From positions 1 to 57,851 of the forward strand of contig JBDUEE010000024.1 in the NCBI GenBank assembly GCA_040002615.1: DNA of 57,851 nucleotides. Reading direction: 5' to 3'. The notes under the pieces are model-generated. The model did not search any database. It worked only from the letters and a program-made list of their open reading frames with translations, and was not told the DNA's origin. This DNA comes from Chloroflexota bacterium (lineage in GTDB: Bacteria > Chloroflexota > Limnocylindria > QHBO01). A program made the translations under genes and the position numbers. Of this stretch, positions 9,721 through 44,735 are shown one piece after another; the first letter of the stretch is position 1, and every line of letters begins with the position of its first letter.

Positions 9721-10908
9721 TCAGCGCGCGCCGGCCGGCGTTCGATAGGCGTCGATCAGGATCTTTGCCACCTCCGGGCGGCTGAACTCCTGCGGCGGCA
9801 TCTCGCCGCTCGAAAGGAGCTCTCGGACCTTGGTGCCGGACAGGATGAGGTGCTGCTCGTCGCCGTGCGGACAGGTCTTGTAGGAGGCCATGCCTTCGCA
9901 GGCATGGCACCAGAACGTGTGCTCAAAGAAGAGCGGCGTGATCCCCAGCTCGTCCGGTGCGAACTCGTCGAAGATGAGGTGGGCGTCGTAGGTGCCGTAA
10001 TAGCTGCCCACGCCTGCGTGGTCTCGGCCCACGATGAAATGGGTGCAGCCGTAATTCTTGCGCGCGATGGCGTGGAAGATCGCCTCGCGCGGGCCGCCGT
10101 AGCGCATCGCGGCGGGGTACACACTGAGCAGGGTCCGATCCGCGGGGTAGTAGTCAGCCAAGAGCGTCTCATAGGCGCGCATGCGGACATCTGCCGGGAT
10201 GTCGTCCGACTTCGTGTCGCCCACCAATGGGTGGATCAGGAGGCCATCGGTGACCTCCAGTGCGACCTTGGTCAGGTACTCATGGGCCCGATGGATGGGG
10301 TTGCGCGTCTGAAAGCCCACCACCCGGCGCCAGCCCTTCTCGGCGAAGATCGCGCGTGTCTCGGCCGGCGAGCGGCGATGTCCCGGAAAGGGTGGGTCCG
10401 CCGGCCCGTTCAGCACCGTCGCGTCGCCGCCGAGGTAGACGTCGCCACCGGCATAGATGCGCGCCACGCCCGGGTGCGCCTCCTCGGTGGTTCGGAAGAC
10501 CTGCTGCGCCTCGTGCTGGGGATCGAAGGTGTACTTCTCGGCCAGATCGAGGATCCCGAGCATGCGACCCTCGTCATCGTTGAGGGCCACCTGCGAGCCG
10601 ATGTCGAGCCGATCCGCCTCTTCCTGACTGACGGCCAGGGTGATGGGAATCGACCACGGCAGGCCGTTCGCCAGGCGCATGTCGTTGACGACAGATTGGT
10701 AGTCTGCCTGGCCCATGAAGCCGGTGAGCGGGCTGAAGGCGCCATTGCCGATCAACTCGAGGTCCGACGCGGCGACGCTGGCGAGCGTGATCGACGGCAG
10801 CGACGCTGCGCGCTCAAGGGCGCTCTCTCGCTCGCTTCCGTGCAGTGCGCGGTCGATCAGCGAGCCGCCGTGCGGCGTCGAGGTCATGGTTGCAGGTGTC
10901 AAGGTCAC
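9721..10908 (-). CDS. sat: Sulfate adenylyltransferase (ATP sulfurylase)
   Basis: 395 aa. Signature motifs [15 protein letters not shown] and VGRDHAGVG. The GTG at 10908 is preceded by GGAG. An alternative ATG lies at 10887. Confidence 0.9.
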
Positions 10909-11132
10909 AACACTCCGTGTGGCGGCTGAGAGGGTGCACGCGTCGGGGATTCGCCTGCGCGCGGCATTCGGGGTCGGGCTATCTATCCTACCGCCTGCTC
11001 CCCGGTCCGTGCTGAACGGCCGAGGTCATCGGGCCGAGCGAGTCAGCGCATGGCGGCTACAATCCGGCGGTGCCGGCGGTGCCGGTCGAATGCGTTCGCA
11101 GGAGGATCTGGTTGGCCGTCGCGGCAAAGGAC

Positions 11133-12119
11133 GTGAGTGACATCGGCGAGGTCGTGCAGGCGCTGCGCGACGCCAGGCGCGTCACCGCGATCTGTCACGA
11201 GAACCCGGACGCCGACACCATCGGCGCCGCCGTCGCCGTCTGCATCATCGCGGAGCGGCTTGGCGCCGAGGCCGAGATCGTGAGCGCGGATGGCATTCCA
11301 CCGGTCTTCAGCTTCCTTTCGCACGTCGGCGGCGTCAGGCGCCGGCCGATGCTCGAGCCGGACCTCGCGGTCCTGTGTGACGCGGCAACCCTGGAGCGCG
11401 TTGGCCGGATCGCGCGCGAACAGGCGGACTGGTTCGCCAGCGCCAAGCTGCTGAATATCGATCATCATGTGAGCAGCAATCTCTTCGGCGACCTCAACCT
11501 CGTCGACTCGCGGGCCGCCGCAACCTGCGAGGTCGTGGCGCGGCTGGTGGACGCCCTCGGGATCGAGCTGGACGCAGAGCTCGCCACCCCGCTGCTGACG
11601 GGCATTGTCCGTGACAGCCACGGCTTCTCGGATCCGGCGACATCGGGCGACACGCTGCGAGCTGCTGCCCGCCTGGTCGACGCCGGCGCTCCCCTCGCGC
11701 TGATCCATCGCCTTATCCTGTCCGAGCTGCCGTTCCGCACCATGGCTCTGTGGGGCAAGATGCTGGCGGGCGTGGGCCAGGCCGGCGATGGGCGAGTCGT
11801 GCATGCGACGCTGACCCAGTCGATGCTCGACCAGACTGGCACCGAGCAGCATGACGCCGATGGCCTCGCCGAATTCCTGGCGAAGGCGAAGGGGGCCGAC
11901 GTGACGCTCCTGCTCCGCGAGCTGGGGCCGGCCGAGACGCGGGTCAGCGTGCGGACGTCCGAAGCCGTCGACGCGACCGCCATCGTGGCGCAGTTCGGTG
12001 GCGGAGGCCATGTGCGCCGAGCGGGATGCACGGTCCCTTGCCACGTCGATGAGGCGGTCGCCCTGGTCGTTTCCGCCAGCGTCGAGGAGCTGCCCCACGG
12101 ACCCGCTGCCGGCGCGTAG
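11133..12119 (+). CDS. nrnA: DHH/DHHA1 phosphoesterase (NrnA-like; candidate 3'-phosphoadenosine 5'-phosphate phosphatase / nano-RNase)
   Basis: ORF 11070..12119. The GTG at 11133 follows AAAGGA. Motifs seen: HENPDADTIGAA, LLNIDHH (DHH) and the DHHA1 motif FGGGGH. Confidence 0.7.
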   Translation: MSDIGEVVQALRDARRVTAICHENPDADTIGAAVAVCIIAERLGAEAEIVSADGIPPVFSFLSHVGGVRRRPMLEPDLAVLCDAATLERVGRIAREQADWFASAKLLNIDHHVSSNLFGDLNLVDSRAAATCEVVARLVDALGIELDAELATPLLTGIVRDSHGFSDPATSGDTLRAAARLVDAGAPLALIHRLILSELPFRTMALWGKMLAGVGQAGDGRVVHATLTQSMLDQTGTEQHDADGLAEFLAKAKGADVTLLLRELGPAETRVSVRTSEAVDATAIVAQFGGGGHVRRAGCTVPCHVDEAVALVVSASVEELPHGPAAGA

Positions 12120-12192
12120 CCAGGGAACGCCCGATGGTCGCGGTGGTCCGCTGACGGCCCCCCTCGACCGGGTCACGGTCTTCGCGCGGGCC

Positions 12193-16702: not shown

Positions 16703-18022
16703 ATGCAAACCACCATCCTGGGCGGTGGGTACGTCGGACTGGTGACCGCCGCCTGCCTGGCCCACCTCGGGCATTCGGTCACGATCATCGAGCCTGATCC
16801 GGATCGCCTCGAACCCATTCGCCGTGGCGCCATCCCCATCCACGAGCCAGACCTGGCGGGCCTGGTGGCGCAGGCTGTGCAGTCATCGGCCCTGCGCGCC
16901 CTGCCGACCATGGCGGAAGCGACTGGCGAGACGGACATCGTGCTGATGTGCGTGGGCACCCCGCTCCGTTCCGACAGCGAGCCCGATCTAGGCCAGGTGG
17001 AGGCCGCCTCGCGCGCCATCCACGTGCATGCCGGCGCCGCGCCAATCGTCATCCGCAGCACGCTGCCGTTGGGTGCCACGCAGCAGGTGGCCGCCTGGAC
17101 GGCCCGTGGCGACCTCACCGGCCTCGTGACGAATCCCGAGTTCCTGCGCCAGGGGAGCGCGGTCGCGGACTTCCTCAAGCCGACTCGGATCGTGGTCGGC
17201 AGCGACGGAGGGCGCGAGACGCAGACAGTGCAGTTGGTCCGCGACCTGTATGCCGGAATCGTGGCTCCGTTCATCGTCACCGACTACGCATCGGCCGAGA
17301 TGATCAAGAACGCTTCCAACGCCTACCTGGCCACGAAGCTGAGCTTCGTGAACGAGGTAGCGGACCTGTGCGAGGCGTACGGCGCCAACGTCGCGGATGT
17401 GATCCATGGCATGGGGCTCGACCCGCGCATCGGCAGCTCATACATGAGTCCGGGAATCGGATTCGGCGGCTCGTGCCTTCCCAAGGAGCTGGCCAACATG
17501 GTGCGGCTCGGGCGGCAGCGCGGCCTGGACACGCCGCTCATGGCGGGAGCTGCCCGGACGAACGAACTGCGAGCGGGTCGCATCGCCGACCGACTCGAAG
17601 CGCTCCGTGGTCCGCTCGCGGGGTGCCGCGTCGCGATCCTGGGCCTTACATTCAAGCCTGACACGGATGACACGCGCTACTCCCCCGCTATTGCGCTGGC
17701 CGATGAGCTCCTGCGCCGAGGTGCCAGTGTGGCGGCCCACGATCCAGTCCTGCCAACGGACTCCCCGGCAGTGCCACCCGCCGTCGAGCGCGCGGAGACC
17801 CCGGAGTCAGCCATCTCGGCCGCCGACCTGGTCCTGCTCGCCACTGCGTGGCCCCAGTACCTTGCGCTCGACTGGAGGCGCCTGGCGACCTCCGCGGCGA
17901 CGCCGATCGTCTTCGACGGAAGGGCCGTCCTCGATCGACCCGCGCTGGCGCACGCCGGATGGACGGTCCTCAGCGTGGGGATTGCTCACGGCGAACCGGT
18001 CGTCGAACCGGTCACTGCCTGA
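16703..18022 (+). CDS. ugd: UDP-glucose 6-dehydrogenase
   Basis: 439 aa. N-terminal ILGGGYVGLVTAACLAHLGH...IPIHEPDL. Catalytic Cys motif GFGGSCLPKE. Overall UDPG/MGDP dehydrogenase architecture. Confidence 0.85.
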   Translation: MQTTILGGGYVGLVTAACLAHLGHSVTIIEPDPDRLEPIRRGAIPIHEPDLAGLVAQAVQSSALRALPTMAEATGETDIVLMCVGTPLRSDSEPDLGQVEAASRAIHVHAGAAPIVIRSTLPLGATQQVAAWTARGDLTGLVTNPEFLRQGSAVADFLKPTRIVVGSDGGRETQTVQLVRDLYAGIVAPFIVTDYASAEMIKNASNAYLATKLSFVNEVADLCEAYGANVADVIHGMGLDPRIGSSYMSPGIGFGGSCLPKELANMVRLGRQRGLDTPLMAGAARTNELRAGRIADRLEALRGPLAGCRVAILGLTFKPDTDDTRYSPAIALADELLRRGASVAAHDPVLPTDSPAVPPAVERAETPESAISAADLVLLATAWPQYLALDWRRLATSAATPIVFDGRAVLDRPALAHAGWTVLSVGIAHGEPVVEPVTA

Positions 18023-18159
18023 CCCCTCGCCCGGTGCCCAATCGTTCGGCTCGCGTGAGCACGCTGCCGGGCTGACTCTCGGAAATCCTCCGTCGCCCCC
18101 GACCGGCGTACTTACGACCCATGGTGCCGTCAAACGTGGGCCGGCATGCTCATCTGGTG

Positions 18160-19911
18160 ATGACTCCCCGCGCCCGATCCACGCTGCTGGCGCTGGCGAT
18201 GCTGCTGGCCTGGGGCCTCGGCGGCTACGCAACCCCAGCGCCAGCCATCGGCGCGGGAATCACCCTGTACGTGGACGGCAAGCACGGCAGCGACAGCGAT
18301 ACCGGCCGCTCCTGGGACCGTGCATTCCGGACGATCAACCGCGCCGCGAGGGAGCTGCCGCGCGATTCACATGCGGCCGGTTGGACGGTCGTGGTTCGAG
18401 GCTACAGCGACTACGTCTACCGTGGGCGGCCGGTGCCGGGCGCCTACGACCGTGCCGGAACCGCCTCCAATCCGGTGATCTTCACCGCAGAGGGATGGGC
18501 GCCTGGAGCCACGAACTACGTGAAGCCGATCGTCTCGGGGGCACTCGTGGCACCCAAGGCTGGCCGATCCTGGCAGGACGACTCGACGTCAGATGTGTGG
18601 TGGACTGCCTGGGACGCGGCGCCGGCTGGATTCGATCGGTCCAAGCCGTACTCGAGCGCCGTCTTCCAGAACCGCATCGGGTTCCTGTGGCAGCACGCCA
18701 GCCTGGCCGACCTGCGCAACCGAGCAAGCCGCGGTGACGGCGGGTACTGGTGGGACTCCGGGGCGCATCGGCTGTATATCAGCACCCGCAGGGGCGTGGC
18801 CCCCAGCTCGGTAACGATCGACGTCCCGAACTACATGGGCTTCTACTTCACCGGATCGGCTGGCTCACGCTACATCTCTGTGCGTGGCTTCGTGGTGCAG
18901 CACACCTCGATGGGGATCACCTTCCACCTCGGTGCGGACCACAACTCGGCCTACGACAATATCGGCGTTGCCAACGTGCCCATGAGCTTCGGCACATCGG
19001 GACGCACCACCAACTCCGGCTTCGACCCAGCGGTCGCCAACGTCTTCCTCCGCAATTCCGCCTCGTACAGCACGCTGCAGGGCTTCAAGGTCGACGCCGG
19101 CTCGCAGGACACGGTCATCTGCCATAACACGGTCCGCCACAATGCGCTCCAGGGCATCAAGGTGCAGGGACCTCCAACTGCTTCCGATCCCCGCGTCACC
19201 AGCGGCACCGAGGTCTGCCACAACGTCCTCGCCGACCAGGACACGCAGCGGCCGGGACCTGGTCGCGCGGACGAGCGGCCAAACGGGCTGACGCTCTGCA
19301 ACGGTGCGCGCGGCACATACGTGCACCACAACACGATCCGGAGCAACGTCGTCGGTGTCCAGGTCAACCAGGGCGGGATCGGGAGCCCGATCACGAACAC
19401 ACGATTCCAGCGCAACCTGGTTTACGGGAACCGGTCTGTTGGACTGAGCCTGCGCGACGGGGTGGCGGATCGCCGGTCTGGCACCGGCTCGCTGCACGCA
19501 TCGTTCAATCTCTATTGGGACAACGAGATCGGGATACGCGTGCACTCAGGCAGCACGAACAAGATATTCGAGCATGAAACGGTGTACGAGAACCGGACCT
19601 CGGGATTCGTGATCGGCTGTGACTGCGCCTCCGCGCGGACCGAGGTGGCGGTCAGCGAGGGCCTGGTGACGCACAACGGCGCGTATGGGATCTGGATCGC
19701 CCCTGGCCAGGACGTCCGGCTGCGGTACCTGGGCATTTCGTCCAACAAGAGTGGCGCGGTTCTTGGCTCGGCCAGCAAGACGCGGGTCAACACTCGTGCT
19801 GCCGGCTACCTGTCCCGCGACCCAGCAACCGGCGAGTTCCTGAAGATCGGCCCCTCGTCGTTCCAGTACACGGCCGGCGTGGACGGCAAGCCGATCGGGG
19901 CACGCTACTGA
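18160..19911 (+). CDS. Secreted right-handed parallel beta-helix repeat protein (candidate polysaccharide lyase or C5-epimerase)
   Basis: ORF 18121..19911. A signal-like N-terminus follows the ATG at 18160 (MTPRARSTLLALAMLLAWGLGGYATPAPA). PbH1-like coils recur: HNTVRHNALQGIKVQG, HHNTIRSNVVGVQVNQ, QRNLVYGNRSVGLSLRD, LYWDNEIGIRVHS, VYENRTSGFVIG and VTHNGAYGIWIAP. Confidence 0.65.
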   Translation: MTPRARSTLLALAMLLAWGLGGYATPAPAIGAGITLYVDGKHGSDSDTGRSWDRAFRTINRAARELPRDSHAAGWTVVVRGYSDYVYRGRPVPGAYDRAGTASNPVIFTAEGWAPGATNYVKPIVSGALVAPKAGRSWQDDSTSDVWWTAWDAAPAGFDRSKPYSSAVFQNRIGFLWQHASLADLRNRASRGDGGYWWDSGAHRLYISTRRGVAPSSVTIDVPNYMGFYFTGSAGSRYISVRGFVVQHTSMGITFHLGADHNSAYDNIGVANVPMSFGTSGRTTNSGFDPAVANVFLRNSASYSTLQGFKVDAGSQDTVICHNTVRHNALQGIKVQGPPTASDPRVTSGTEVCHNVLADQDTQRPGPGRADERPNGLTLCNGARGTYVHHNTIRSNVVGVQVNQGGIGSPITNTRFQRNLVYGNRSVGLSLRDGVADRRSGTGSLHASFNLYWDNEIGIRVHSGSTNKIFEHETVYENRTSGFVIGCDCASARTEVAVSEGLVTHNGAYGIWIAPGQDVRLRYLGISSNKSGAVLGSASKTRVNTRAAGYLSRDPATGEFLKIGPSSFQYTAGVDGKPIGARY

Positions 19912-20816
19912 GCGGAACGCTCCTGCGGTAGCCAGCCCGCGAGCCTGCGACCGAGCAGCGCCTCCAGCCGCCGATTTCCCTGCGCCAGCTCTTCACGCAG
20001 CCGGGCGATCGCGTCCGGGCCCAGCGCCTCGCGCGGCGACGGCTCCGTGTTGAGCCGAACCGCCGAGCGATACAGGCGGCGACGCAATCGAGGTGGCGCG
20101 ACGCGGCGGCCCACCGAGCGAACCCATTCGGGCGGGTCATTGAGCGCGCGCCGCAGGAGTAGGCTCCGCGATCGCTTGCTGGCGTTTACGACGGCGAATT
20201 CCGGCTGGTGCGCCGGATCGAGTGACAGGAAGGCCAGCACGTCACGGTAAGCGGCGGAGGTATCGGCCCTGAAGTCGTCGTACACGATGACGTGCACGCC
20301 GCTGCGGCCGAAGCGATCGAGATAGCGCTCCAGCTGCTCGGCATAGGAAGCCACCCTCCGGTAGAGCATTCCTCGCGGGAAGTTGGCATGGGGCGGGATA
20401 CGACGACCCGCGGCGCGATCCTCCTCAGCCGCCAGCGCCTCCTCGAGAAGGAGATCCTCGTGACCGTTGTAGACGAATTGGCTGTGGAGCGACGCAATCA
20501 TCTCCACGGGGTCGCGGAGCATGGCAATGATGCGTGCATCGGGGACGGCGGCGTGGATCTCGTCGGCGGCGCGCTCCGAGTAGAGGTACCAGACGGACGC
20601 CTCGCCGATGCGGCTCCGCCCATCCGCGTTCGCAAAGTAGGACTCGTACTGCCCGGCGCTCGGTCGGCGGCGATACCGGAACTCCAGGTCGCTTCCGAAG
20701 TAGTGCGGCTCCTTCGGGTCCGACATCAGGACGTCGGGGTGCTGCGTGAGATACGCGTGCAGGGCGGTGGTGCCGCATTTCGGCGCACCCACGATGAAGA
20801 AGTTCGGCAGCGTCAC
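19905..20816 (-). CDS. Sulfotransferase (Sulfotransfer_1-like, PAPS-dependent), paralogue 1
   Basis: 303 aa. 5'-PSB loop FFIVGAPKCGTTAL lies at the extreme N-terminus. 3'-PB region MLRDPVEMIASLHSQ. No signal peptide. There is a 4-nt start/stop overlap with the upstream paralogue. Confidence 0.85.
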   Translation of the reverse strand: MTLPNFFIVGAPKCGTTALHAYLTQHPDVLMSDPKEPHYFGSDLEFRYRRRPSAGQYESYFANADGRSRIGEASVWYLYSERAADEIHAAVPDARIIAMLRDPVEMIASLHSQFVYNGHEDLLLEEALAAEEDRAAGRRIPPHANFPRGMLYRRVASYAEQLERYLDRFGRSGVHVIVYDDFRADTSAAYRDVLAFLSLDPAHQPEFAVVNASKRSRSLLLRRALNDPPEWVRSVGRRVAPPRLRRRLYRSAVRLNTEPSPREALGPDAIARLREELAQGNRRLEALLGRRLAGWLPQERSAQ

Positions 20817-21727
20817 GGCGCATCCGATGGCCGCAACCAGCCGCCCAGGTCGCGCCCGATCATCTCGCCCAACCGCATCATCTCCGGGCGCAGGTCATCG
20901 ATCAGTCGTGCCCGCAGCGCGGGGTCAAGTGCGGCGCGCGCCTGCCGCCGGGCGTTCAGTCGGGTGGCGGCCCGATAGAGACGCTTGCGCGTGGTACGCG
21001 GCAGGAGACGGCGAGCGGTGCCACGGATCCAGCCCGGCGGGCTCGCCACCAGGCGCTGCAGCATGCGACTTCGTGTTGTCTTGGCGGCATTGAGCACCTC
21101 AAGCCGTGGTTCGAAGTGGTCGTCCACGCCCAGGAAGCGGAACGTGCCGGCGACACTGGCGGCGGTATCGGCCTTGAAGTCGTCGAAGACGATCACGTGC
21201 ACCCGCTCGCGGCCCAACGCCTGGTGGTACCGAGCCAGTTGCTCGCAGAAGTTGACGGCCTCCCGGTAGAGGAGGCCCCGCGGGTTGTTGATGGCCGCCG
21301 GGATCCGCCTGCCTTCACGCCGATCGGCCTCCGCGGCGAGCGCCTCGCCAAATTCGGCGATCTCCTCGATGCCCAGGAACACCAGTTCGGCGTGCAGGGC
21401 CTGCATGACCTCCAGGGGGTTGCGCAGCATCACGATCGCCTGGGCCTGCGGCGCGAAATCGGCGATCTCGCGCGCAGCCAGGGTCGAGCGCAGGTAGCTG
21501 ACCGATGCCTCACCGATGCGGACGCCGGGTGGCGCCGACGCGAAGTTGGCCAGGTATTCCTCCAGGGTGAGCCGCGCGGTGTGGCGCGAGGGGCGGTCGC
21601 TGCCGAAGTAGTTCAGCTCCTTGATTGCCGGCATGAAGATGCCGGGGTGCTGTCGCAGGTAGTCGTGCAGCGAGGTCGTCCCGGACTTCGCCGCACCGAC
21701 GATGAAAAAGTCGGGCCGTGGGCTCAT
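20813..21727 (-). CDS. Sulfotransferase (Sulfotransfer_1-like), paralogue 2
   Basis: 304 aa. Motifs FFIVGAAKSGTTSL and MLRNPLEVMQALHAE. The C-terminal motif EMIGRDLGGWL is shared with the other paralogues. Confidence 0.85.
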   Translation of the reverse strand: MSPRPDFFIVGAAKSGTTSLHDYLRQHPGIFMPAIKELNYFGSDRPSRHTARLTLEEYLANFASAPPGVRIGEASVSYLRSTLAAREIADFAPQAQAIVMLRNPLEVMQALHAELVFLGIEEIAEFGEALAAEADRREGRRIPAAINNPRGLLYREAVNFCEQLARYHQALGRERVHVIVFDDFKADTAASVAGTFRFLGVDDHFEPRLEVLNAAKTTRSRMLQRLVASPPGWIRGTARRLLPRTTRKRLYRAATRLNARRQARAALDPALRARLIDDLRPEMMRLGEMIGRDLGGWLRPSDAP

Positions 21728-21737
21728 GGGACCGATG

Positions 21738-22886
21738 CTATCCGGATGCCGAGCCGGCCGCGCCGATGACTTCGTCGATCAGCTCCGCGTAACGCCGGAG
21801 CGCCTCCTGCGGAGCGAAGCGCTCCGATCGTCTCCGTGCGCCGGCACGCAGGCGCGCTGCGAGCTGCGGGTCGCGAAGGACGCGAAGGATCGCGGCCGCC
21901 AGGGCAGCCGGGTCGCGGGTCGGAACGAGGAGGCCGCTGCGCTCCGGCTCGATAATCTCGTCGGGTCCGAACTGCGAGTCGGTTGCGATGGCGACCGCTC
22001 CGACGCGCATGGCCTCGACCAGCACGAATGGAAAGGCCTCCCAGTCGGACGCCAGCACAAACACGTCGGCACGCCGCATGGCCGGGAATGGGTTCGGCAC
22101 GTGACCCGCCAGATGTACCGCATCCTTCAGGCCCAGCCGAGCGATCTCCGCCTCCAGCGCTGGCCGTTCCTCCCCCTCCCCTAAGATCACCAGCCGTGCG
22201 GGGACCTGGCGGTGGACGTCGACGAGCGCCTGAAACAGGACCGGATAGGCCTTCTGCGCCGTGAGACGCCCCACTGCTACCAGCGTGGGCCTCGGACCGG
22301 CGAACCACTCGGCTGGCGGATCCTCCTCCGTGAGGCGATCAACCTCCGGGTCGAAGGGGTTGTAGATAGTGCGCAGCCGATGGGGCGGCAGGTCAAGTTC
22401 TTGGATCATCGCGGCACGCAACCCTTCTGAGACGGGCACCACTGCTCCGACCCGCCGGTACAGGCGACGGGCGATCGCGAGCTGCAGACGTTTGCCGGGC
22501 GTGGCGCGCAGCGCATCCGGTGTGACGTGCTCGGTGGCGATGACGGGAATGCCCGATCGCTCCAGGGCAGACGCGCCGATGAGCAGCAGGTTCTGGTAGG
22601 TCATGAAGCCGATGGCGACGGCCGGTCTTCGTCTGCGCAGGTCCGCGGCCAGCCGCGCGAGCACCCGCATGAGGTCCAGACGCGACCGCTTCTCGAGCGA
22701 GCGAATGGGGACGCGGTCGGGCAGCTCCTCCACCACTGCCTGGTTCTCGTCGCGCCGGTGCAGCACCACGATCTCGGGCGCGTACCGATCCGGATCCAGT
22801 CCGCGCGCCAGGATGCTGACCAGACGCTCCATCCCGCCCTGGCGAATGGAGGGCACGAGGAAGAGGATTCGCCGCGGCTGTGTCAC
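21738..22886 (-). CDS. Glycosyltransferase family 4 (GT-B, Glycos_transf_1)
   Basis: 382 aa. It has VAVGRLTAQKAY and the EX7E-type motif SDWEAFPFVLVEAMRVG. Confidence 0.85.
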   Translation of the reverse strand: MTQPRRILFLVPSIRQGGMERLVSILARGLDPDRYAPEIVVLHRRDENQAVVEELPDRVPIRSLEKRSRLDLMRVLARLAADLRRRRPAVAIGFMTYQNLLLIGASALERSGIPVIATEHVTPDALRATPGKRLQLAIARRLYRRVGAVVPVSEGLRAAMIQELDLPPHRLRTIYNPFDPEVDRLTEEDPPAEWFAGPRPTLVAVGRLTAQKAYPVLFQALVDVHRQVPARLVILGEGEERPALEAEIARLGLKDAVHLAGHVPNPFPAMRRADVFVLASDWEAFPFVLVEAMRVGAVAIATDSQFGPDEIIEPERSGLLVPTRDPAALAAAILRVLRDPQLAARLRAGARRRSERFAPQEALRRYAELIDEVIGAAGSASG

Positions 22887-23791
22887 GACGGGGCGCGCCA
22901 GGCCGGCAGCGGGCGGCCCAGCAGGCGTTCCAGCTTCGCGACCTCTGGATCAAGCTCGGCGCGAAGCCGGTCGCGCAGCTCGGAGGTCAGCGCGACCCGC
23001 CCGGGCGTGGCGGAGTTGAGGGCGACGGCCCGGCGGTACGCGAGGCGCCGGAGAGGAGTCGGGACCGCCGCGCGCACCGCGCGCCGCAGCGGAGCCGGTG
23101 GGGCTGCCAGGAAGCGACGCATGAGCGCCGATCTGGCGCGCTTGTTCGGGTTGGCGTGCGGGAGAGGAATCTCGGGGCGCGGCGAGAGCCCCAGAAAGCG
23201 GACGATGGCGGCACAAGTCTCCTGGGGCCGATCGATCAGGTCATCGAACAGCAGCACATGGACGTGATCCGAGCCGAAGCGGTCGAGGTAGCGTTCCACC
23301 TGCTCGGCGTAGCGTACCGTGGCCCGGTAGCAGAGCCCGGCCGGGAAATGTGCCTCCGCTGGGATGCGTCGGCCGGCGCATCGGTCCGGCTCGGCCGCCA
23401 ACGCATCGGCGAAATCCTCCAGGTCCTCATTGCCGTCAAAGACGAACTCGGAGTGAAGGGCATACAGGGCCGCGCTCGGGTTCCGTAGGGCGATAACAAT
23501 CCGGGCATCGGGCCGCACCTCGGCGATCTCCCGTGCAGCGGCCCGGCTGAACAGGTACCAGACGTATGCGACGCCGCACAGGGAACCCGGCGGCGCGTCG
23601 CGGTAGAGATCCAGGAATTCCTCGGCCGTCCATTCCCGCCGGTGGCGGACGTCCAGGTCCTCTCCGAAGAACCACAGCTCCTTCTGCTCCGGTACGAAGA
23701 CCTCCGGGTATGCCGCCACGTACTCGTAGAGCGAGGTGGTCCCCGCCTTGGGCGCCCCGACGATATAGAAGTCGGGCCAACGGGCGGTCAC
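22883..23791 (-). CDS. Sulfotransferase (Sulfotransfer_1-like), paralogue 3
   Basis: ORF 22883..23869. The GTG at 23791 lies 4 nt after the upstream gene's stop. Motifs FYIVGAPKAGTTSL and ALRNPSAALYALHSE. Confidence 0.85.
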   Translation of the reverse strand: MTARWPDFYIVGAPKAGTTSLYEYVAAYPEVFVPEQKELWFFGEDLDVRHRREWTAEEFLDLYRDAPPGSLCGVAYVWYLFSRAAAREIAEVRPDARIVIALRNPSAALYALHSEFVFDGNEDLEDFADALAAEPDRCAGRRIPAEAHFPAGLCYRATVRYAEQVERYLDRFGSDHVHVLLFDDLIDRPQETCAAIVRFLGLSPRPEIPLPHANPNKRARSALMRRFLAAPPAPLRRAVRAAVPTPLRRLAYRRAVALNSATPGRVALTSELRDRLRAELDPEVAKLERLLGRPLPAWRAPS

Positions 23792-23795
23792 GCGC

Positions 23796-24701
23796 TCAGC
23801 TCCGGTCGGCGGCAGCCCACCACGTGCCGGCCAGGTCGCGGCCGAGCAACGCCTCCAGGCGCGTGACATCCGGTGCGAACTCGGCCCGCAGTCGCTCCCG
23901 GAGGGCCGGGCTCACCGGCGGGCGGTCCAGTCGCCGGCGGTTCGTGCGACGCAGCAGGCGCATGCAGGCGATGGCTATTCGGTCCAGACGGCTTACGGGA
24001 ACGGCTCGGTGCGGCAGTCGGCCGACGATGCGTGAGAGCAGCACACTGCGGGGCCGCAGGCTCGTGTTGTAGTGGCGAAATGAGGCCGGTTGGTAACCAG
24101 GGCTCAATTCCAGGAATGCGAGCAAGTGGGCGAACGTCTGTTGCGGCTCGGCGGCCAACTCCTCAGTGATGATGACGTGCACCCGTTCACGCCCGAAAGC
24201 ATCGAACCAGCGCGGCAGCATGTCGGCGTAGCGGACGCGATCTCGATAGCGGACGCTCGACTGGTCGCCGACGGTACCGAAGCCGGGGCGCGTGTGCTCG
24301 TCCGCCATGGCGTCGGCGAAATCGACCTTTGGCTCGACCCCCTGGGCGACGCGCATGCCGTGCAGCGAGTGCATCATGTCGACCGGGTTGCGCAGCATCG
24401 CCACGATGCGGGCATCTGGCGCGAATTCCCGAATCCGTTCGACCGCCTCCGGCGACTCCAGGTAGGAGGTCGACGCCTCGCCTACCTTCTTCGCATCGCC
24501 TGCATCCTCGAAGAGGGCCAGGTAGCGATCCATCGCATCCGGGAAGGGCATGCCCCGCTTCACGATCCGATCACCGGCGAAGAACTGCGGCTCCTTGACG
24601 CCTGCCAGGAAGACCTCCGGATGCCCCTGCAGGTAGTTGTAGAGCGAGGTCGTCCCGCATTTCGGGGCGCCGACGATGAACAGATCGGGGCGTCGCGTCA
24701 C
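23796..24701 (-). CDS. Sulfotransferase (Sulfotransfer_1-like), paralogue 4
   Basis: 301 aa. Motifs LFIVGAPKCGTTSL, MLRNPVDMMHSLHG and the C-terminal ALLGRDLAGTW. Confidence 0.85.
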   Translation of the reverse strand: MTRRPDLFIVGAPKCGTTSLYNYLQGHPEVFLAGVKEPQFFAGDRIVKRGMPFPDAMDRYLALFEDAGDAKKVGEASTSYLESPEAVERIREFAPDARIVAMLRNPVDMMHSLHGMRVAQGVEPKVDFADAMADEHTRPGFGTVGDQSSVRYRDRVRYADMLPRWFDAFGRERVHVIITEELAAEPQQTFAHLLAFLELSPGYQPASFRHYNTSLRPRSVLLSRIVGRLPHRAVPVSRLDRIAIACMRLLRRTNRRRLDRPPVSPALRERLRAEFAPDVTRLEALLGRDLAGTWWAAADRS

Positions 24702-24769
24702 GCTGGCTCCATGGCGAGTGAGTGGGCCGAGATTATAGGTAACATGGCGGTATGGAGCTGGGCCGCTGA

Positions 24770-25777
24770 GTGTCGATCGCGTTGGTAATGACCGTCCGGG
24801 ACGAGGTGGAGTTCCTCCGCAGCAACCTGCTGTACCACCACCATCTCGGGGTCGATATCGCCTACGTCTATGATGACGGCTCGACGGACGGCACCGCGGA
24901 GACCGTCGCCGACTTGCCCTTTGTGCGCATCCGCCAGACGGTGAAGGCCTCCTCGCTTGCCCCTGGTGAGCGAATCGACCCGGCCGATGAGTCAGAGCTC
25001 TACACCACGACTCGCCAGAACATCAACACCGGCCATGCGTTGGGCCGCGCCCGCGCCGACGGCATGACCTGGCTGCTGGCCATCGATGCCGATGAGCTGG
25101 CTTGCGTGGACATGGTCTCGCAGGAGGCCGGTGGCCTGGGACGGGCGTTGGGCACGGTGCCGAAGGAGGTCGAGGCGGTGATCCTGCGCCCGCTGGAGAT
25201 CGTCCAGCGACAGATAGCGTTCGATGACACGATGGCGCAGGAGACGCTCTTCAAGCGTGCGGACGTGGGGTTGAAGCACCTGACCTTCGATCCCTTCACA
25301 CGGACGACTCACAGCGTCCGCGGTGTGTACGGGCATACCGCCGGAAAGAGCGCCGTCCGCCTGGCGGCTAACCTGCGGCCGGAAACGGTGCATCGTTTCC
25401 GCCGGAGCGACGGGTCGCGACCGACCTCCACCGACCTCGGCTGGCTGCTGCACTATTTCTGCTACAGCTTCGAGGCCTTCGTGCGCAAGTTTCGTCTGTA
25501 CCGCGATCACCCCGACCGGCACCTCCACGGTCACGAGGTCCAGCTGCAGAAGCGGCTGTGGCGTGACGTCGTCAACCGGTCGGGCATGAGCGAGGAGGAG
25601 CTGCGCGACTACTACCAGCGGTGGGTCATGTTCGACGACCGCGAAATCGCCCGTCTCCGCCAGCGGCGGTGGCTGGGGATCGTGCCGCGTCCGCCGGCGG
25701 TGGTCGAGGTGACGGCGGCCCGCAGGACGTTCGCTGAGCTGCGGGCTCAGCCGGCCGAGCTGGCCGTCGGACGCTGA
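24770..25777 (+). CDS. Glycosyltransferase family 2-like (GT-A fold)
   Basis: 335 aa with a GTG start. N-terminal ALVMTVRDEVEFLRSNLLYHHHLGVDIAYVYDDGSTDGT. DxD-like motif AIDADE. Confidence 0.65.
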   Translation: MSIALVMTVRDEVEFLRSNLLYHHHLGVDIAYVYDDGSTDGTAETVADLPFVRIRQTVKASSLAPGERIDPADESELYTTTRQNINTGHALGRARADGMTWLLAIDADELACVDMVSQEAGGLGRALGTVPKEVEAVILRPLEIVQRQIAFDDTMAQETLFKRADVGLKHLTFDPFTRTTHSVRGVYGHTAGKSAVRLAANLRPETVHRFRRSDGSRPTSTDLGWLLHYFCYSFEAFVRKFRLYRDHPDRHLHGHEVQLQKRLWRDVVNRSGMSEEELRDYYQRWVMFDDREIARLRQRRWLGIVPRPPAVVEVTAARRTFAELRAQPAELAVGR

Positions 25778-26517: not shown

Positions 26518-26553
26518 GACGATGCAGGTTAGCGGATGCGTCGGAGGAGCCGT

Positions 26554-27777
26554 TCAGCCGATGAGCCGAGCGGCCAGTGATCGATTGGCGTCGTAGACCT
26601 GCGCCAGGACGCGTTGGGCCAGGAATGGCTCCGCGGCATGCACGCTGGCCGTTCGGAGGGCACCCGTCGTTGACCCGAGCAGGCTGGCGATGGCCTCTGC
26701 CACCGCTTCGGGATCTCGCGCGATCGCCACCCGGCCGGCGCCAGAGCGATTGACGACGCCGGCGACCTCGCCGACATCAGTCGTCACGACCGGCAGCCCA
26801 CAGGCCAGCGCTTCCAGGCCGACCGTCGGTCCGGTCTCAAAGGCCGAGGTGATCAGCAGCGCATCGGCAGCATTCATGAGTCGAGCCACCGACTCACGCG
26901 GCAGGGTGCCCAGGAGGGTGACCGCTGCGCCGATTCCAAGAGCGCCCAGCTCCGAGCGCAGGCGACCCTCCAATCCGCCTTCCCCGGCTACCAGAAGGTG
27001 TATATCGGGCCGCCGGCGACGGAGCGCCGCAAACGAGCGGACGAGGAGGATCGGATCCTTCTGCCCATCCAGACGCCCCGCGTAAAGGAGCAGCGGCGCG
27101 GATGGACTGAACCCATGCGCCGTCGCCAGTTTCTCGCGCCAGGCGCGGATGTCCTCGGCAGATTCAGGGAAGAAGATGGCGGGGTCGACCCAGTTGGGCA
27201 GGAACTGGAACCGGTCAGCGACGTCGGAGAATCGCGCTCGGTAGTTCGCTGTGATCTCCTCGTTGACGACGAAGATCCGATCCATCCGGCGAAAGCTGCG
27301 CGCTTCGCTGAGCGCCAGCGGACCGGAGATGCCTGCCCATCGGCTCTCGCTGCCTGAGGTCGTCAGGTCGTCAACGCCAAGGTGAACGACCCGCCACATC
27401 GGTCCCGCCCGACGGATGGGAAGGTCCGTGAGCGGGCGGTGGAATGAGCTGACGACACCGGCGCCGAGCTCGCGCCCGTGTCGTGCCAGCGCGCCAACGA
27501 ACCGGGCCGCCAACGGGATCCTGCTGCGTCCTGAGCTTCGGCGGCGGACGACGGGCAAGAATTGAATCGCTCGCCCCTCGAGCTCGACCGCGGCCCAGCG
27601 CCAGGTCGGAAGTGAGGCGCTGATGCCGACCATCGAGACGTCGAAGTCAGCCGGCGCGTACTTCACGAATCCGCGCACGAAGGTCGCGATGCCGCCAATC
27701 CGCATCTCGCCAGCGTCCGCGGGCAGGAAGATCCGCACCGGAACGCGGCTCGACGCCGCGGCGGCCTCCTGCGTCAC
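26554..27777 (-). CDS. Glycosyltransferase family 4 (GT-B)
   Basis: 407 aa. Motifs LLLYAGRLDGQKDP and SAFETGPTVGLEALACGLPVV (the EX7E region). Confidence 0.85.
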   Translation of the reverse strand: MTQEAAAASSRVPVRIFLPADAGEMRIGGIATFVRGFVKYAPADFDVSMVGISASLPTWRWAAVELEGRAIQFLPVVRRRSSGRSRIPLAARFVGALARHGRELGAGVVSSFHRPLTDLPIRRAGPMWRVVHLGVDDLTTSGSESRWAGISGPLALSEARSFRRMDRIFVVNEEITANYRARFSDVADRFQFLPNWVDPAIFFPESAEDIRAWREKLATAHGFSPSAPLLLYAGRLDGQKDPILLVRSFAALRRRRPDIHLLVAGEGGLEGRLRSELGALGIGAAVTLLGTLPRESVARLMNAADALLITSAFETGPTVGLEALACGLPVVTTDVGEVAGVVNRSGAGRVAIARDPEAVAEAIASLLGSTTGALRTASVHAAEPFLAQRVLAQVYDANRSLAARLIG

Positions 27778-29321
27778 GCCTCGGCTTCGCGCGGGCGTTG
27801 CCAGGCGATGGACGCCACGATGCCGATAACAAGGACCATGAGATAGACACGAGATGGCGAGTTGAACATCGAGCTGGCCAGGGATTCAACGAGAGCCTGG
27901 GCGAAGAGCATGCCGGCAGCCAGGCGCAATATCCGCAATTCCTGGCCGTCGTCGCGGCCAACCTCGCGCCACAGCATCCAGCCCAGGGCGGCCAGGAAGG
28001 CCGCGTACCCGAGGAGGCCGATGATGCCCATCTCTCCGAGGATCTGCGGCCAGAACGTATCGGTGGCGGCCGTTGGATTCGGGGGTTTGAGACCGCGGAC
28101 CGTGTCCAGGCCGTATCTGGTGTACAGCGGGCTGTACTGCTGACGGCTCATCCAGCTGCCGAACCGACCCATGCCGCCGCCGAGCGGCAGGTAGTCTCTC
28201 GCGATCTCCACCGAACCCTCGTACAGGGCAAACCGGGCGCGGGCGTTCTCACCCTCGCCGGGAGGTTCCACGATCACCTCGCCGGGGGATGGCGTGGGCT
28301 CCAGTCCCGGCACGCCGATCCCATATTTCTCCAATGTCAGGTCATAGAGGCCGGTCAACAAGGAAAGGAACAGCACGAACAGCACCACGCCGCCCGCGGC
28401 GGCGGGAATCCAGGTGCGGACGAGCGATGACCAGCTGTGAAAGAGGCGCGGGGAGGCCACCAGCGCCGCGAAAGCCCCGGCGGTGAGCGCAAGGATCGCG
28501 CGGCGGCGCGCCGACAGGAACGGACCGGTGGCGACGACCAGCGAGACGAAGAGCCAGCGCAGCTGGCGGGTGACGAGGTAGCGGGCCAGCAGCAGGAGGG
28601 CGACAAAGGTCGTGAAGTAGCCGAACAGGGCCGGGTGGACGAAGACAGATTTGACGACGACGTTCTCGCTCCGAAGCCGCACATAGTGGTTGAGGTTTAG
28701 CAACTCCTGGAAGCGATCCGGGTTGAAGAGCTCGACCGCGCCGAGCATGGCCACGACCACGCCGGCCGCGATCACCACCCACAGCCCGGCTCGCGCTTCG
28801 GTGGCCGAGATGCGGCTCAGCATCACGATGTAGAAGAAGACGATCGCCTTGGCCAGCAGCAGCCCCGCAGGTACCCAGACTCCGACCGGCACGTGGGCCG
28901 CCAGGCTCGAGATCAGACCGGCCAGCACGGCGACCGCGATGGGCAGGTCGCGCGGCCACGACACCCAGGAACGCCAACGCGGCAGCGCGCGCCAGGCGGC
29001 TATAGGCGCCAGCAGGAGCAACGAGACCTCGTCGATACGCTTGATCGGTGCGCCGATATACCAGGCGGTGGTCTCGGAGAACATCATGAACACGGCCATC
29101 GCGAACAGTGCCTCGGCTGGCCGCCAGAGATAGGTCGCGGCGATCAGCAGTGCCCCGCTGACCGGGATGACCACCTGGCGCGCCTGGGCCGGCAGGCCAA
29201 CCGAGGACAGGAGCGTCGGCAGCAGGATCAGGGAGACCAGCAGGAGCGCTGTGCGCAGCACGATGCCCGCAGTCCCTTCCTGACCGATGGCGCTCAGCCA
29301 GCCGCGGCTTCGGACAGTCAT
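27774..29321 (-). CDS. Wzy-type polymerase / O-antigen-ligase-family polytopic membrane protein
   Basis: 515 aa with at least 10 hydrophobic segments. A large loop after the SARRRAILALTAGAF region resembles a Wzy_C-type domain. It has 4-nt overlaps with both neighbouring genes. Confidence 0.65.
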   Translation of the reverse strand: MTVRSRGWLSAIGQEGTAGIVLRTALLLVSLILLPTLLSSVGLPAQARQVVIPVSGALLIAATYLWRPAEALFAMAVFMMFSETTAWYIGAPIKRIDEVSLLLLAPIAAWRALPRWRSWVSWPRDLPIAVAVLAGLISSLAAHVPVGVWVPAGLLLAKAIVFFYIVMLSRISATEARAGLWVVIAAGVVVAMLGAVELFNPDRFQELLNLNHYVRLRSENVVVKSVFVHPALFGYFTTFVALLLLARYLVTRQLRWLFVSLVVATGPFLSARRRAILALTAGAFAALVASPRLFHSWSSLVRTWIPAAAGGVVLFVLFLSLLTGLYDLTLEKYGIGVPGLEPTPSPGEVIVEPPGEGENARARFALYEGSVEIARDYLPLGGGMGRFGSWMSRQQYSPLYTRYGLDTVRGLKPPNPTAATDTFWPQILGEMGIIGLLGYAAFLAALGWMLWREVGRDDGQELRILRLAAGMLFAQALVESLASSMFNSPSRVYLMVLVIGIVASIAWQRPREAEA

Positions 29322-30244: not shown

Positions 30245-30284
30245 CAGGCTGATGATACCGAGGGATGGATTGTCCGCTGCCGCG

Positions 30285-31829
30285 TTACCGGACCTGCTCG
30301 ACGCGACGCCGCGCAAGAGGGTTGGCCTGGGCGGCGATCTTCAGGACGTCGCGGATCAGCTCGCGGTCGAGCAGCCAGAGCATGGCCAGGAACACGGCGG
30401 CCCCGGCCGGCACGAGGGTGGCGACGACTACGAGCGGCTCGCGGTCGCCCAGGACCATGCGCGATGCCAGCATGACTGCCGCCATGACCGCGGTGGCGGC
30501 CGCCACGCCCCGCATGTTCCCGAGGTACTCGGCGATCTGGATGCCGGCATGGCGGCGCATCCAGAACAGGTTGAGCGGCAGCAACAGGTAGGCCGGTACC
30601 ACGTACGCGGCGGCAACAGCGACGATGCCGAATGGGACCGCCACGACGAAGCCAATGACTGTGGCCACCGTGGTGAGCAGACGCAGCCGGAAGGCGACGT
30701 CTGGACGTCCAACCGCGTTCAGGAGAGCGATGCTGAGCGCCTGCACGGCGACGACCGGTCCGACCAGCAGCAGGACCATGGCGACCGGGCCGCTCTGCTC
30801 CCATCGGGCTCCGAAGAGGACCACGATGAGCTCGCCGGCGACGATCGCCAATGCAACATAGCCAGGGAGGATGACGGCGGCAGCGGCGGCGGTGACGCGG
30901 TTGTACGCGCGCCGCATGCGCTCGGGATCCTCTTGGAGTCGGCTGAAGACAGGAAACGTCATCTTGCGCGTGATCTGCACCAGCACGGCCTGGGTGGCCG
31001 TCAGGATGCGGTAGCCGACGACGTAGAACCCCAGGGTGCTGGTACCCAGAACTGCCCCGACCAGCAGGTTGTCGACGTTGCGGGTCATGAAGGTGATGAC
31101 ATCGCCGGCCATGACATGGATCCCGAAACGGAAGAGGCCGCCGAACGCTGCCCGCGACGCGCGGAAGGAAGGCCGCCACGGCGTGACCCACCACAGGGTG
31201 AGCACTGAGAAGACGGTCGAGGCGATCTGCTGTCCGACAAGGGCCCAGACGCCCATCCCCGCCAGCGCCATGACCACACCGACCACCCCGCCTCCGGCCG
31301 ACGCGGCGAGTGCCCGCAGCGAGAGGCTGCGGAACGCGAGCTGGCGACGCAGTAACGCGATCTGGATGGTGATCAGCGCGGCGGCGAGGAAGGTAGGCGA
31401 AAGCACCTGAAGGATCGGCTGCAGGCCAGGTGCAGCAAGAAGCGCCGAGATGGGACCGGCGAACAGGAACAGGAGCACGGTCAGAAGCCCACCGGTCAGC
31501 ACCGCCACCCAGAACGCGGTGTCGACCTGGATCGGCGTGATCTCGCGACGTTGGACGAGGGCGTCGCCCATGCCCTGGTCGACGATGAGCTGTGCGAAGA
31601 GGACGAAGACCATGGCCAGCGCCACCAGCCCAATGTCCTCGGGCATGAGCAGCCGAGCAAGCACCAGGAAGACCACGAGGTCGATCCCCTGCCGGCCCCA
31701 CGTCCCGATCAATGTCCAGGCAAGCCCGCTGGCGACCTCCTGCCGAAACTGCCGGCGTGACCGGCGCTCGCCGGAGGTCTGCTGCGGCGCGACCAGATTC
31801 GGATCGCCGCCGTCAGTAGGCTCGGACAT
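30285..31829 (-). CDS. wzx: Oligosaccharide-unit flippase (Wzx, MOP superfamily, Polysacc_synt)
   Basis: ORF 30285..31856. About 14 hydrophobic segments. The N-terminal region GLAWTLIGTWGRQGIDLVVFLVLARLL is typical of polysaccharide flippases. The start is either 31856 or the ATG at 31829. Confidence 0.8.
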   Translation of the reverse strand: MSEPTDGGDPNLVAPQQTSGERRSRRQFRQEVASGLAWTLIGTWGRQGIDLVVFLVLARLLMPEDIGLVALAMVFVLFAQLIVDQGMGDALVQRREITPIQVDTAFWVAVLTGGLLTVLLFLFAGPISALLAAPGLQPILQVLSPTFLAAALITIQIALLRRQLAFRSLSLRALAASAGGGVVGVVMALAGMGVWALVGQQIASTVFSVLTLWWVTPWRPSFRASRAAFGGLFRFGIHVMAGDVITFMTRNVDNLLVGAVLGTSTLGFYVVGYRILTATQAVLVQITRKMTFPVFSRLQEDPERMRRAYNRVTAAAAAVILPGYVALAIVAGELIVVLFGARWEQSGPVAMVLLLVGPVVAVQALSIALLNAVGRPDVAFRLRLLTTVATVIGFVVAVPFGIVAVAAAYVVPAYLLLPLNLFWMRRHAGIQIAEYLGNMRGVAAATAVMAAVMLASRMVLGDREPLVVVATLVPAGAAVFLAMLWLLDRELIRDVLKIAAQANPLARRRVEQVR

Positions 31830-31891
31830 GCGGGGGAGTTTAGTGGCACGCGGCACGGGGCTCGCAGCACCGAGCCCACGGGCAGGGCAAA

Positions 31892-40616: not shown

Positions 40617-40626
40617 GCGAGACGGG

Positions 40627-44723: not shown

Positions 44724-44735
44724 GCGGTCGCCATT

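Follow-up and report, generated by a model that had tools for sequence, protein, structure and literature searches.

Five diverged XssA-type sulfotransferase paralogues in a predicted Wzx/Wzy polysaccharide locus of a Chloroflexota bacterium

The stretch of DNA analysed here (the window) comprises 57,851 nucleotides of contig JBDUEE010000024.1 (GenBank assembly GCA_040002615.1) from an uncultured, soil-type Chloroflexota bacterium of the Limnocylindria lineage. It carries five minus-strand genes, ST1 to ST5, whose products are predicted sulfotransferases dependent on 3'-phosphoadenosine 5'-phosphosulfate (PAPS), and these genes are embedded among glycosyltransferase (GT) genes and a Wzx/Wzy type of polysaccharide assembly system (Table 1). 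The original prediction had placed five open reading frames (ORFs) of about 300 residues at these positions without naming the strand, and both the ORF listing and a reading of the minus strand bear it out. The genes form two tight units, Wzx-ST5-Wzy-like-GT4b-ST6-like and ST4-ST3-GT4a-ST2-ST1, so the predicted arrangement of four paralogues packed with one GT4 gene and a fifth paralogue apart also holds.

The gene junctions are as had been described. GTGA overlaps join ST2 to ST1 (20813–20816) and ST3 to GT4a (22883–22886), while ST4 and ST3 are separated by 4 nt (23792–23795). In addition, a gap of 10 nt lies between GT4a and ST2, and ST5 overlaps the Wzy-like gene by ATGA. This packing, with GT4a included, is compatible with co-translation. 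The starts at 23791 (ST3, GTG) and 30244 (ST5, ATG) are internal to the longest ORFs and agree with the alignment of the five proteins. The G+C content at third codon positions, 0.82–0.86 in ST1–ST5, supports coding in these frames. A sigma-70-like consensus scan of 18000–33000 found no promoter-like site, the ST4/GT2 intergenic region included, and a terminator scan of the same interval found fewer terminator-like sites than in shuffled sequences; both scans are uninformative for this organism of high G+C content.

The five proteins can be aligned end to end over about 300 residues, with 56 invariant columns and 40–48% identity to ST1, a similarity well beyond chance. A hidden Markov model (HMM) built from them scored 448–512 bits against each, and detected no further family member among the ORFs of the window at E<=1e-10. 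At the DNA level, repeat finding grouped their N-terminal regions into one repeat family of 65–71% identity. Three shared motifs had been predicted, an N-terminal loop, a block around LRNP and a C-terminal tail. All three are real, although they had been written slightly too strictly: the loop reads FYIVGA in ST3 and LFIVGA in ST4, and the tails vary among LLGRRLAGW, MIGRDLGGW, LLGRPLPAW, LLGRDLAGTW and LIDRDLAAW.

In Pfam, all five proteins exceeded the cut-offs of both PF13469 (Sulfotransfer_3; 44–61 bits, cut-off 27) and PF00685 (Sulfotransfer_1; 26–43 bits, cut-off 22). Their earlier designation as Sulfotransfer_1-type thus stands as regards predicted PAPS sulfotransferase character and the PF00685 threshold, but Sulfotransfer_3 is the higher-scoring family for ST1–ST5. 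When the five-sequence profile was compared with the sequences of the PDB, the best match was 3RNL (E=3.8e-67, residues 3–302), followed by the heparan sulfate (HS) enzymes HS3ST1 (1e-15), the sulfotransferase domain of NDST1 (3e-13), HS3ST5 and HS3ST3A1. The AlphaFold2 model of ST3, the sole paralogue modelled (mean predicted local confidence, pLDDT, 94.4), gave 3RNL as the first Foldseek match in the PDB (E=7e-18, template-modelling (TM) score 0.85), with the HS 3-O-sulfotransferases (3-OSTs) at about 1e-10 and a TM score of about 0.72; all of the top 50 matches were sulfotransferases. The Pfam, profile and fold searches rule out a non-sulfotransferase P-loop family for ST1–ST5. They also uphold the original comparison with heparan sulfate enzymes, since among solved structures only 3RNL is nearer than 3-OST and NDST.

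The loop G-A-x-K-x-G-T-T, which binds the 5'-phosphosulfate, is kept in all five proteins with x variable. K13, T16, T17, E36, D43 and R101 are present in every paralogue, and in the family alignment of 114 sequences K13 occurs in 110, E36 in 111 and D43 in 104. E36 lies in a K-E-x-x-F-F segment, and the HMM alignment pairs it with the Glu of NEVHFF in 3-OST-1, which is reported to be the catalytic base Glu90 (Edavettal et al. 2004). In the 3'-phosphate motif, R101 is common to all five, and the Ser eight residues on (position 109) is found in ST1 and ST4. In ST3, GVAY replaces the GEAS motif of the family. Judged by these residues and the predicted fold, ST1–ST5 would be PAPS-type sulfotransferases, and we propose that Lys13 would stabilise the transition state and that Glu36 would serve as the general base. 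No signal peptide or transmembrane segment was detected in ST1–ST5, and the PAPS-binding loop begins at residue 4–11; its location within the first dozen residues implies that the proteins are soluble and cytoplasmic.

The closest characterised relative is XssA, encoded in the xss cluster for synechan on plasmid pSYSM of Synechocystis sp. PCC 6803. In hhalign, XssA aligned with the five-sequence profile over its full length, C-terminal tail included (residues 11–280 of 301, 259 columns, 30% identity, probability 99.6, E=2e-24); XssE is a distant relative (probability 79). XssA shares the Pfam profile of ST1–ST5 and is likewise encoded in a Wzx/Wzy polysaccharide cluster. Deletion of xssA abolishes synechan (PMC8205485; PMC13125312). 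The full-length homology, together with this requirement for xssA, points to ST1–ST5 as XssA-type polysaccharide sulfotransferases. The loss of synechan further suggests that XssA sulfates its substrate before polymerisation and export.

The window also contains a putative sulfate-donor module. Sat and CysC, together with the NrnA-like protein, would enable the cell to make the donor and to remove the inhibitory by-product 3'-phosphoadenosine 5'-phosphate (PAP). The NrnA-like protein matched the Rv2837c/NrnA oligoribonuclease/PAP phosphatase structures over its full length (E=7e-33). According to the authors who described a sulfated capsule of proven structure, the presence of PAPS genes and sulfotransferase genes in one locus is a hallmark of sulfated polysaccharide synthesis (PMC11641403). 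In two related loci, L001 and L002 (L-numbers label the related loci and genomes compared), Sat-CysC and the NrnA-like gene are linked to the sulfotransferase cluster; in L007, L030 and L077 the NrnA-like gene is linked to it, without Sat-CysC within the stretch fetched. As an aside, the candidate PAP phosphatase beside this sulfation locus is of the NrnA and not the CysQ type, which may merit attention.

The upstream unit ends in a gene for a further protein, ST6-like, that is probably a sixth sulfotransferase from a different lineage than ST1–ST5, as judged by sub-threshold profiles and a structural model. Its Pfam matches were to Sulfotransfer_2 and Sulfotransfer_1 at E of about 6e-4 (20.6 and 19.8 bits against a threshold of 22). 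The AlphaFold2 model (pLDDT 85.5) retrieved PAPS sulfotransferases as nearly all of its top 16 Foldseek matches, but with a best E of 0.018 and TM scores of at most 0.41. ST6-like had no match among PDB sequences and no similarity to XssE. Its 337 homologues come mostly from Chloroflexota and are almost all labelled hypothetical. The gene is syntenic in L001, L002 and L009, and it shares 31 nt at its 3' end with the convergent GT2 gene. The original prediction had not drawn on the Wzx/Wzy frame with its dehydrogenases, nor on ST6-like, the Sat/CysC/NrnA-like module and the XssA homology, which are the strongest evidence from context.

The nearest named proteins and genomes belong to Candidatus Limnocylindria and other Chloroflexota. 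The sulfotransferase block is syntenic in six related loci (L001, L002, L007, L009, L030 and L077), and other flanking genes besides the NrnA-like one are shared in related loci beyond L001 and L002. In a neighbour-joining tree of the family, each paralogue of the window groups with its own orthologues; that of ST5, for instance, forms a clade with members from L001, L009, L077, L047 and L050. L007 and L009 have a different divergent copy. The separate orthologue clades indicate that the paralogy is old, and with the 40–48% identity to ST1 they rule out a recent amplification, in line with the original description of an old, diverged family. ST1 is 78–79% identical to its orthologues in L001 and L002, with a ratio of nonsynonymous to synonymous substitution rates (dN/dS) of 0.15–0.17; the value for ST2 is 0.19. 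Across ST1–ST5, compared with L001 or L002, dN/dS is 0.15–0.19, a range that indicates purifying selection for all five. At twelve alignment positions (75, 79, 107, 113, 117, 143, 146, 155, 213, 222 and 233 among them) the residue is constant inside each orthologue group but not from one group to another; some of these positions lie in the segment after the GEAS motif that corresponds to an acceptor-contacting part of 3-OST. These group-specific residues lend weak support to different acceptor specificities.

The family as a whole is very large, with 11,016 representatives at 50% identity (E<=1e-30), and relatives occur in hundreds of species genomes from many phyla, including genomes labelled Brocadia, Kuenenia, Competibacteraceae, Truepera and many others. 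An identical protein occurs in the samples SRR34294543 and SRR26386605. Among the best 80 loci of the species-genome scan, a sample biased to close relatives of ST1, 59 contain just one family member within 10 kb and only five have at least four, the labelled ones among these being Limnocylindria-like. A tblastn search of plasmids with ST1 returned 221 records, none of which covers at least 80% of ST1 in one place; they mainly show a wide distribution of the catalytic core among Rhodobacterales and Sinorhizobium. Among the related loci, L011, a metagenome-assembled genome (MAG) labelled Actinoplanes sp., has a three-copy locus whose layout and tree position are nearly identical to those of two Truepera MAGs (L004, L006), which suggests mis-binning or recent transfer.

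We favour, with moderate confidence, the view that ST1–ST5 are cytoplasmic PAPS carbohydrate sulfotransferases of the XssA/3RNL subfamily, acting in a Wzx/Wzy locus in which each sulfates a defined position of the lipid-linked repeat unit. PAPS would be made by the locus-encoded Sat and CysC. The repeat unit would be built on a lipid carrier by the polyprenyl-phosphate glycosylphosphotransferase, three GT4 enzymes and one GT2 enzyme, with uronic acids supplied by the two nucleotide-sugar dehydrogenases. At the cytoplasmic face, ST1–ST5, and probably ST6-like too, would each sulfate a defined hydroxyl (or amine), and the by-product PAP would be hydrolysed by the NrnA-like phosphoesterase. The sulfated unit would then be flipped by Wzx and polymerised by the Wzy-like membrane protein, and the polymer would be O-acylated outside the membrane by the AT3-SGNH enzymes. 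Because ST1–ST5 appear cytoplasmic and PAPS is made in the cytoplasm, we infer that the polyprenyl-diphosphate-linked unit is sulfated before Wzx acts, as has been proposed for synechan. The scheme predicts an acidic, densely sulfated polymer at the cell surface, with about one sulfotransferase per glycosyltransferase; the cell is thus likely to produce a surface polysaccharide with heavy sulfation. The five cytoplasmic glycosyltransferase-type genes, set against five to six sulfotransferases, predict far more sulfate per sugar than in synechan.

Within this scheme, family membership, fold, conserved catalytic residues, gene layout, synteny, purifying selection and the link to PAPS genes are backed by the observations above; the polysaccharide acceptor, the timing before flipping and the assignment of one position to each paralogue are the parts that we infer. 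The last of these, which the original prediction had proposed, is plausible and fits the purifying selection and the group-specific residues; more than one acceptor glycan is equally compatible with the data on that question. Several points weigh against the favoured scheme as a whole. The source bacterium is uncultured and the scheme is a prediction from sequence, the family tree carries no support values, and the Wzy assignment is weak, as the Wzy-like protein has neither a Pfam match nor similarity to XssF; a Wzy_C protein (46905–48377) lies 17 kb from it. Moreover, the five genes are split over two transcription units, ST5 and ST6-like being in a different one from ST1–ST4. In line with this split, the paralogues could serve at least two glycans, the candidates being the Wzx/Wzy polymer, a nonulosonic-acid glycan (39558–48377) and glycans that the GtrA and PMT_2 systems transfer outside the membrane, a reading that we consider unlikely. 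Other possible acceptors are indeed at hand in the window, which holds a complete NeuB/NeuC/PseB-like/DegT/CMP-transferase set with the second, Wzy_C, protein, three PMT_2 genes, a GtrA fusion, an LCP gene and a WecA/TagO-like transferase gene, and in Vibrio sp. KMM 8419 distinct sulfotransferases within one large locus have been assigned, some to the capsule and others to the O-antigen (PMC11641403). However, ST1–ST5 and ST6-like are interleaved with a single GT/Wzx/Wzy-like set within 10.4 kb, related genomes keep this block together, and the nonulosonic acid genes are 10–17 kb distant.

A further difficulty is that the copies are not uniform. Position 109 is Ala in ST2, ST3 and ST5 in place of the canonical 3'-phosphate-binding Ser, and the complement varies among relatives: ST4 is absent from L001, L002 has two ST4-like genes (5137–6033 and 6117–7010), and the ST3 orthologue of L001 (7020–7921) is split into two frames. 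Such differences in copy number between close relatives imply that not every copy is essential, and in Synechocystis the loss of xssE has little effect (PMC8205485). The paralogues might then be partly redundant or inactive, one or two of them sulfating and the others acting as condition-specific isoenzymes, serotype-like accessories or non-catalytic binding proteins. We judge this improbable. Every copy retains the catalytic Lys, Glu and Arg, and dN/dS is similar to that of the neighbouring GT4 genes (0.15–0.25), so pseudo-enzymes, which the original prediction had named as one outcome that would overturn it, are unsupported; none of its refuting outcomes open to computation was observed. Across the family alignment, position 109 is Ser in 83 sequences and Ala in 31; Ala109 is fixed in the ST3 and ST5 orthologue groups and is found in five of the six members of the ST2 clade, which argues for a stable natural variant rather than decay or a recent lesion. 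As L001 is, going by its naming, a long-read assembly, its split ST3 may be a sequencing error, the alternative being a real pseudogene. Acceptors other than polysaccharides (glycolipids, glycoprotein glycans, peptides or small molecules, as for NodH, Stf0 and the glycopeptide-antibiotic sulfotransferases) seem very improbable to us. Characterised bacterial members of the wider clan do use lipo-oligosaccharides and glycolipids (PMC11625862), and the only NCBIfam match to rhizobial or mycobacterial carbohydrate sulfotransferases was a weak one between ST1 and NoeE, limited to the P-loop. Against this, the closest characterised relative comes from a polysaccharide pathway, the neighbours of ST1–ST5 are GT, Wzx and Wzy-like genes, and no lipid, NRPS or PKS genes are nearby.

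Table 1. Features of the window discussed in the text, with positions, strand and supporting observations.
Feature	Position	Strand	Observations
ST1, XssA/3RNL-type PAPS sulfotransferase (predicted), 303 aa	19905..20816	-	PF13469 61 bits, PF00685 38 bits; K13, E36, D43, R101 and S109 present
ST2, paralogue, 304 aa	20813..21727	-	Stop overlaps ST1 start (GTGA); residue 109 is Ala
ST3, paralogue, 302 aa	22883..23791	-	GTG start with upstream GGAG; stop overlaps GT4a start
ST4, most divergent paralogue, 301 aa	23796..24701	-	First gene of the five-gene unit
ST5, fifth paralogue, 308 aa	29318..30244	-	In the upstream unit Wzx-ST5-Wzy-like-GT4b-ST6-like
ST6-like, candidate divergent sulfotransferase, 256 aa	25747..26517	-	Sub-threshold Pfam; PRTGSS and RNPLDVAVT motifs; weak fold matches
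Intergenic region, 68 bp, ST4/GT2 divergent, presumed promoter region	24702..24769	.	Gene layout
CysC, APS kinase	9053..9691	-	Pfam APS_kinase 1.4e-59; NCBIfam 270 bits (cut-off 244); ATG start at 9691
Sat, ATP sulfurylase	9721..10908	-	Pfam ATP-sulfurylase 1e-98 and PUA_2; NCBIfam 574 bits (cut-off 387)
NrnA-like DHH/DHHA1 phosphoesterase, candidate PAP phosphatase	11070..12119	+	Pfam DHH, DHHA1; divergent from Sat-CysC
Initiating polyprenyl-phosphate glycosylphosphotransferase	7581..9047	+	Pfam Bac_transf 1e-67; NCBIfam EPS_sugtrans 391 bits (cut-off 296)
GT4a glycosyltransferase, between ST3 and ST2	21738..22886	-	Pfam Glycos_transf_1 3.5e-35, Glyco_transf_4; kept in L001, L002, L007, L009
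GT2-like glycosyltransferase	24770..25777	+	Pfam Glyco_tranf_2_4 1e-13; syntenic in L001, L002
GT4b glycosyltransferase	26554..27777	-	Pfam Glycos_transf_1 1e-30
Multi-pass membrane protein, 515 aa, candidate Wzy-type polymerase	27774..29321	-	Position, synteny; weak NCBIfam HpsL match
Wzx-type MOP flippase	30285..31856	-	Pfam Polysacc_synt_3 1e-82; NCBIfam MOP flippase 243 bits, under the 273-bit cut-off
Nucleotide-sugar 6-dehydrogenase 1 (uronic acid supply)	16703..18022	+	Pfam, NCBIfam
Nucleotide-sugar 6-dehydrogenase 2	31892..33238	+	Pfam, NCBIfam
Secreted right-handed beta-helix protein	18121..19911	+	Pfam Beta_helix, NosD; convergent with ST1, 7-nt overlap
AT3-SGNH O-acyltransferase a	33232..35322	+	Pfam
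AT3-SGNH O-acyltransferase b, tandem paralogue of a	35737..37821	+	Pfam; repeat finding
GT4c glycosyltransferase	37686..39008	+	True start probably downstream of 37821
Nonulosonic (sialic-like) acid pathway	39558-48377		NeuB-type synthase, NeuC-type 2-epimerase, PseB/LegB-like dehydratase, DegT aminotransferase, CMP-sugar synthetase

Among the neighbouring genes, that of the beta-helix protein adjoins the sulfotransferase block in L001, L002 and L007 also. The protein had no match among PDB sequences, and it could be a lyase, hydrolase or C5-epimerase acting on the polymer. The dehydrogenase and acyltransferase genes bear a trace of their history: between the two AT3-SGNH genes, 35370–35694 is a dehydrogenase-gene remnant, the 5' part of which is 91% identical to 31858–32008 and the 3' part 91% identical to 33054–33192. 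It was left behind when dehydrogenase and acyltransferase were duplicated in tandem and part of the duplicate was then lost by internal deletion. The nonulosonic acid region also holds two unassigned ORFs (41831–42586 and 44736–46190) and the Wzy_C/O-antigen-ligase-like protein; the region may therefore specify one glycan that is both sulfated and sialylated.

Two tandem PMT_2 genes of the GT-C fold (11998–13575 and 13592–15010) share a 300-nt stretch (12280–12579 and 13715–14014) that is 99% identical; set against a likeness of about 50–60% in related genomes, this suggests recent gene conversion or partial duplication. At 15065–16657 on the plus strand, a GtrA-type transmembrane domain is fused to a P-loop domain weakly like HprK-related kinase A. 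This fusion, 73–78% identical in L001, L007 and L009, could be a glycan or lipid-carrier kinase. The right end of the window (53459–57725) contains genes for a GGDEF diguanylate cyclase, an LCP (LytR-CpsA-Psr) ligase and a WecA/TagO-like Glycos_transf_4 protein, which hint at the anchoring of a polymer from this region to the cell wall and at its possible control by c-di-GMP.

Among bacteria, sulfated polysaccharides are often said to be confined to cyanobacteria (PMC8205485, PMC13390465), a view contradicted by the sulfated capsules of marine Proteobacteria (PMC11641403). A recent comparative-genomics paper on Limnocylindria mentions neither sulfotransferases nor capsules. Sulfated glycosaminoglycan-like material has been detected chemically in granular sludge, and the enzymes behind it are not known. 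The present locus is a concrete and complete predicted gene set in another, uncultured phylum, covering donor synthesis, recycling, five XssA-type enzymes and one divergent enzyme, and assembly. It is possible, though in our estimation doubtful, that Limnocylindria-type Chloroflexota of soil and freshwater make a heparin-like, uronic-acid-containing surface polymer with about one sulfate per sugar, in which five to seven position-specific XssA-type enzymes, gained and lost among strains, would write a variable "sulfation code", with Sat-CysC-NrnA supplying PAPS and removing PAP. If so, no enzymatic sulfation system described from a bacterium would be denser, and it would be a candidate source of the unexplained sulfated glycosaminoglycan-like material in environmental biofilms. 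Regiospecific paralogues would offer a compact toolbox for sulfating designed polysaccharides enzymatically; without regiospecificity, the locus would be just another predicted sulfated-glycan cluster.

As proteins, ST1–ST5 are of a known kind, belonging to a very large family that is detectable with Pfam and has a solved structure. That structure, 3RNL, a structural-genomics entry from Alicyclobacillus acidocaldarius, is the closest to them in both sequence and fold, and shares the PKxGT loop, KExxFF, GEAS, LRNP and the C-terminal RDLxxW tail. It represents a single uncharacterised protein, and a literature search found no paper on its substrate. The animal HS 3-OSTs and the NDST sulfotransferase domain come next, sharing the PAPS loops and a Glu base in an ExHFF context. 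In heparan sulfate biosynthesis, several paralogous sulfotransferases divide the positions of one polymer between them. However, the animal enzymes are only about 18–20% identical to ST1–ST5, reside in the Golgi lumen and act on a finished polymer, whereas ST1–ST5 have an extra basic C-terminal region of about 90 residues. Furthermore, the position of the acceptor-binding K123 of 3-OST-1 is Ala73 in all five, indicating that they are not orthologues of the animal HS enzymes but only a bacterial sister subfamily. By sequence comparison, the XssA/3RNL subfamily would thus be the bacterial sister of the animal HS 3-O- and N-sulfotransferases.

Cluster-encoded sulfation of polysaccharides has already been described in Synechocystis and for a Vibrio capsule, and has been proposed in Actinoplanes. 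In Actinoplanes missouriensis, the Wzx/Wzy cluster wps-1 encodes WpsH, annotated with an HS sulfotransferase domain and likened here by description, beside a second sulfotransferase of the Gal/GlcNAc type; WpsH is needed for the surface-matrix phenotype (PMC13390465). This pairing parallels that of ST1–ST5 with ST6-like, but wps-1 has one copy of each and sulfation there is a proposal. The capsule locus of Vibrio sp. KMM 8419 combines PAPS genes with several sulfotransferases, and its polymer has been proven by nuclear magnetic resonance to be sulfated (PMC11641403). Also likened by description, it differs in its ABC-transporter (Kps) export, in cysNDC in place of Sat, and in having three sulfotransferases over about 80 genes. 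NodH, NoeE, Stf0 and KpsS belong to the same clan and are PAPS-dependent with sugar acceptors, but they are single genes and their acceptors are lipo-oligosaccharides or glycolipids.

The xss cluster provides the most direct comparison. Its eight glycosyltransferases are accompanied by a single XssA-type gene and the distant XssE, and the cluster is listed without PAPS genes; synechan carries two sulfates per eight sugars (PMC8205485). In the window, which comes from another phylum and lacks the XssQRS regulator, about five glycosyltransferases are matched by five XssA-type enzymes and a divergent sixth, and the linked genes include Sat, CysC and the NrnA-like one. The ratio of sulfotransferases to glycosyltransferases is far above that of the synechan cluster. 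What is distinctive here is therefore the phylum, the number of XssA-type paralogues, this high ratio and the conserved Sat-CysC-NrnA module.

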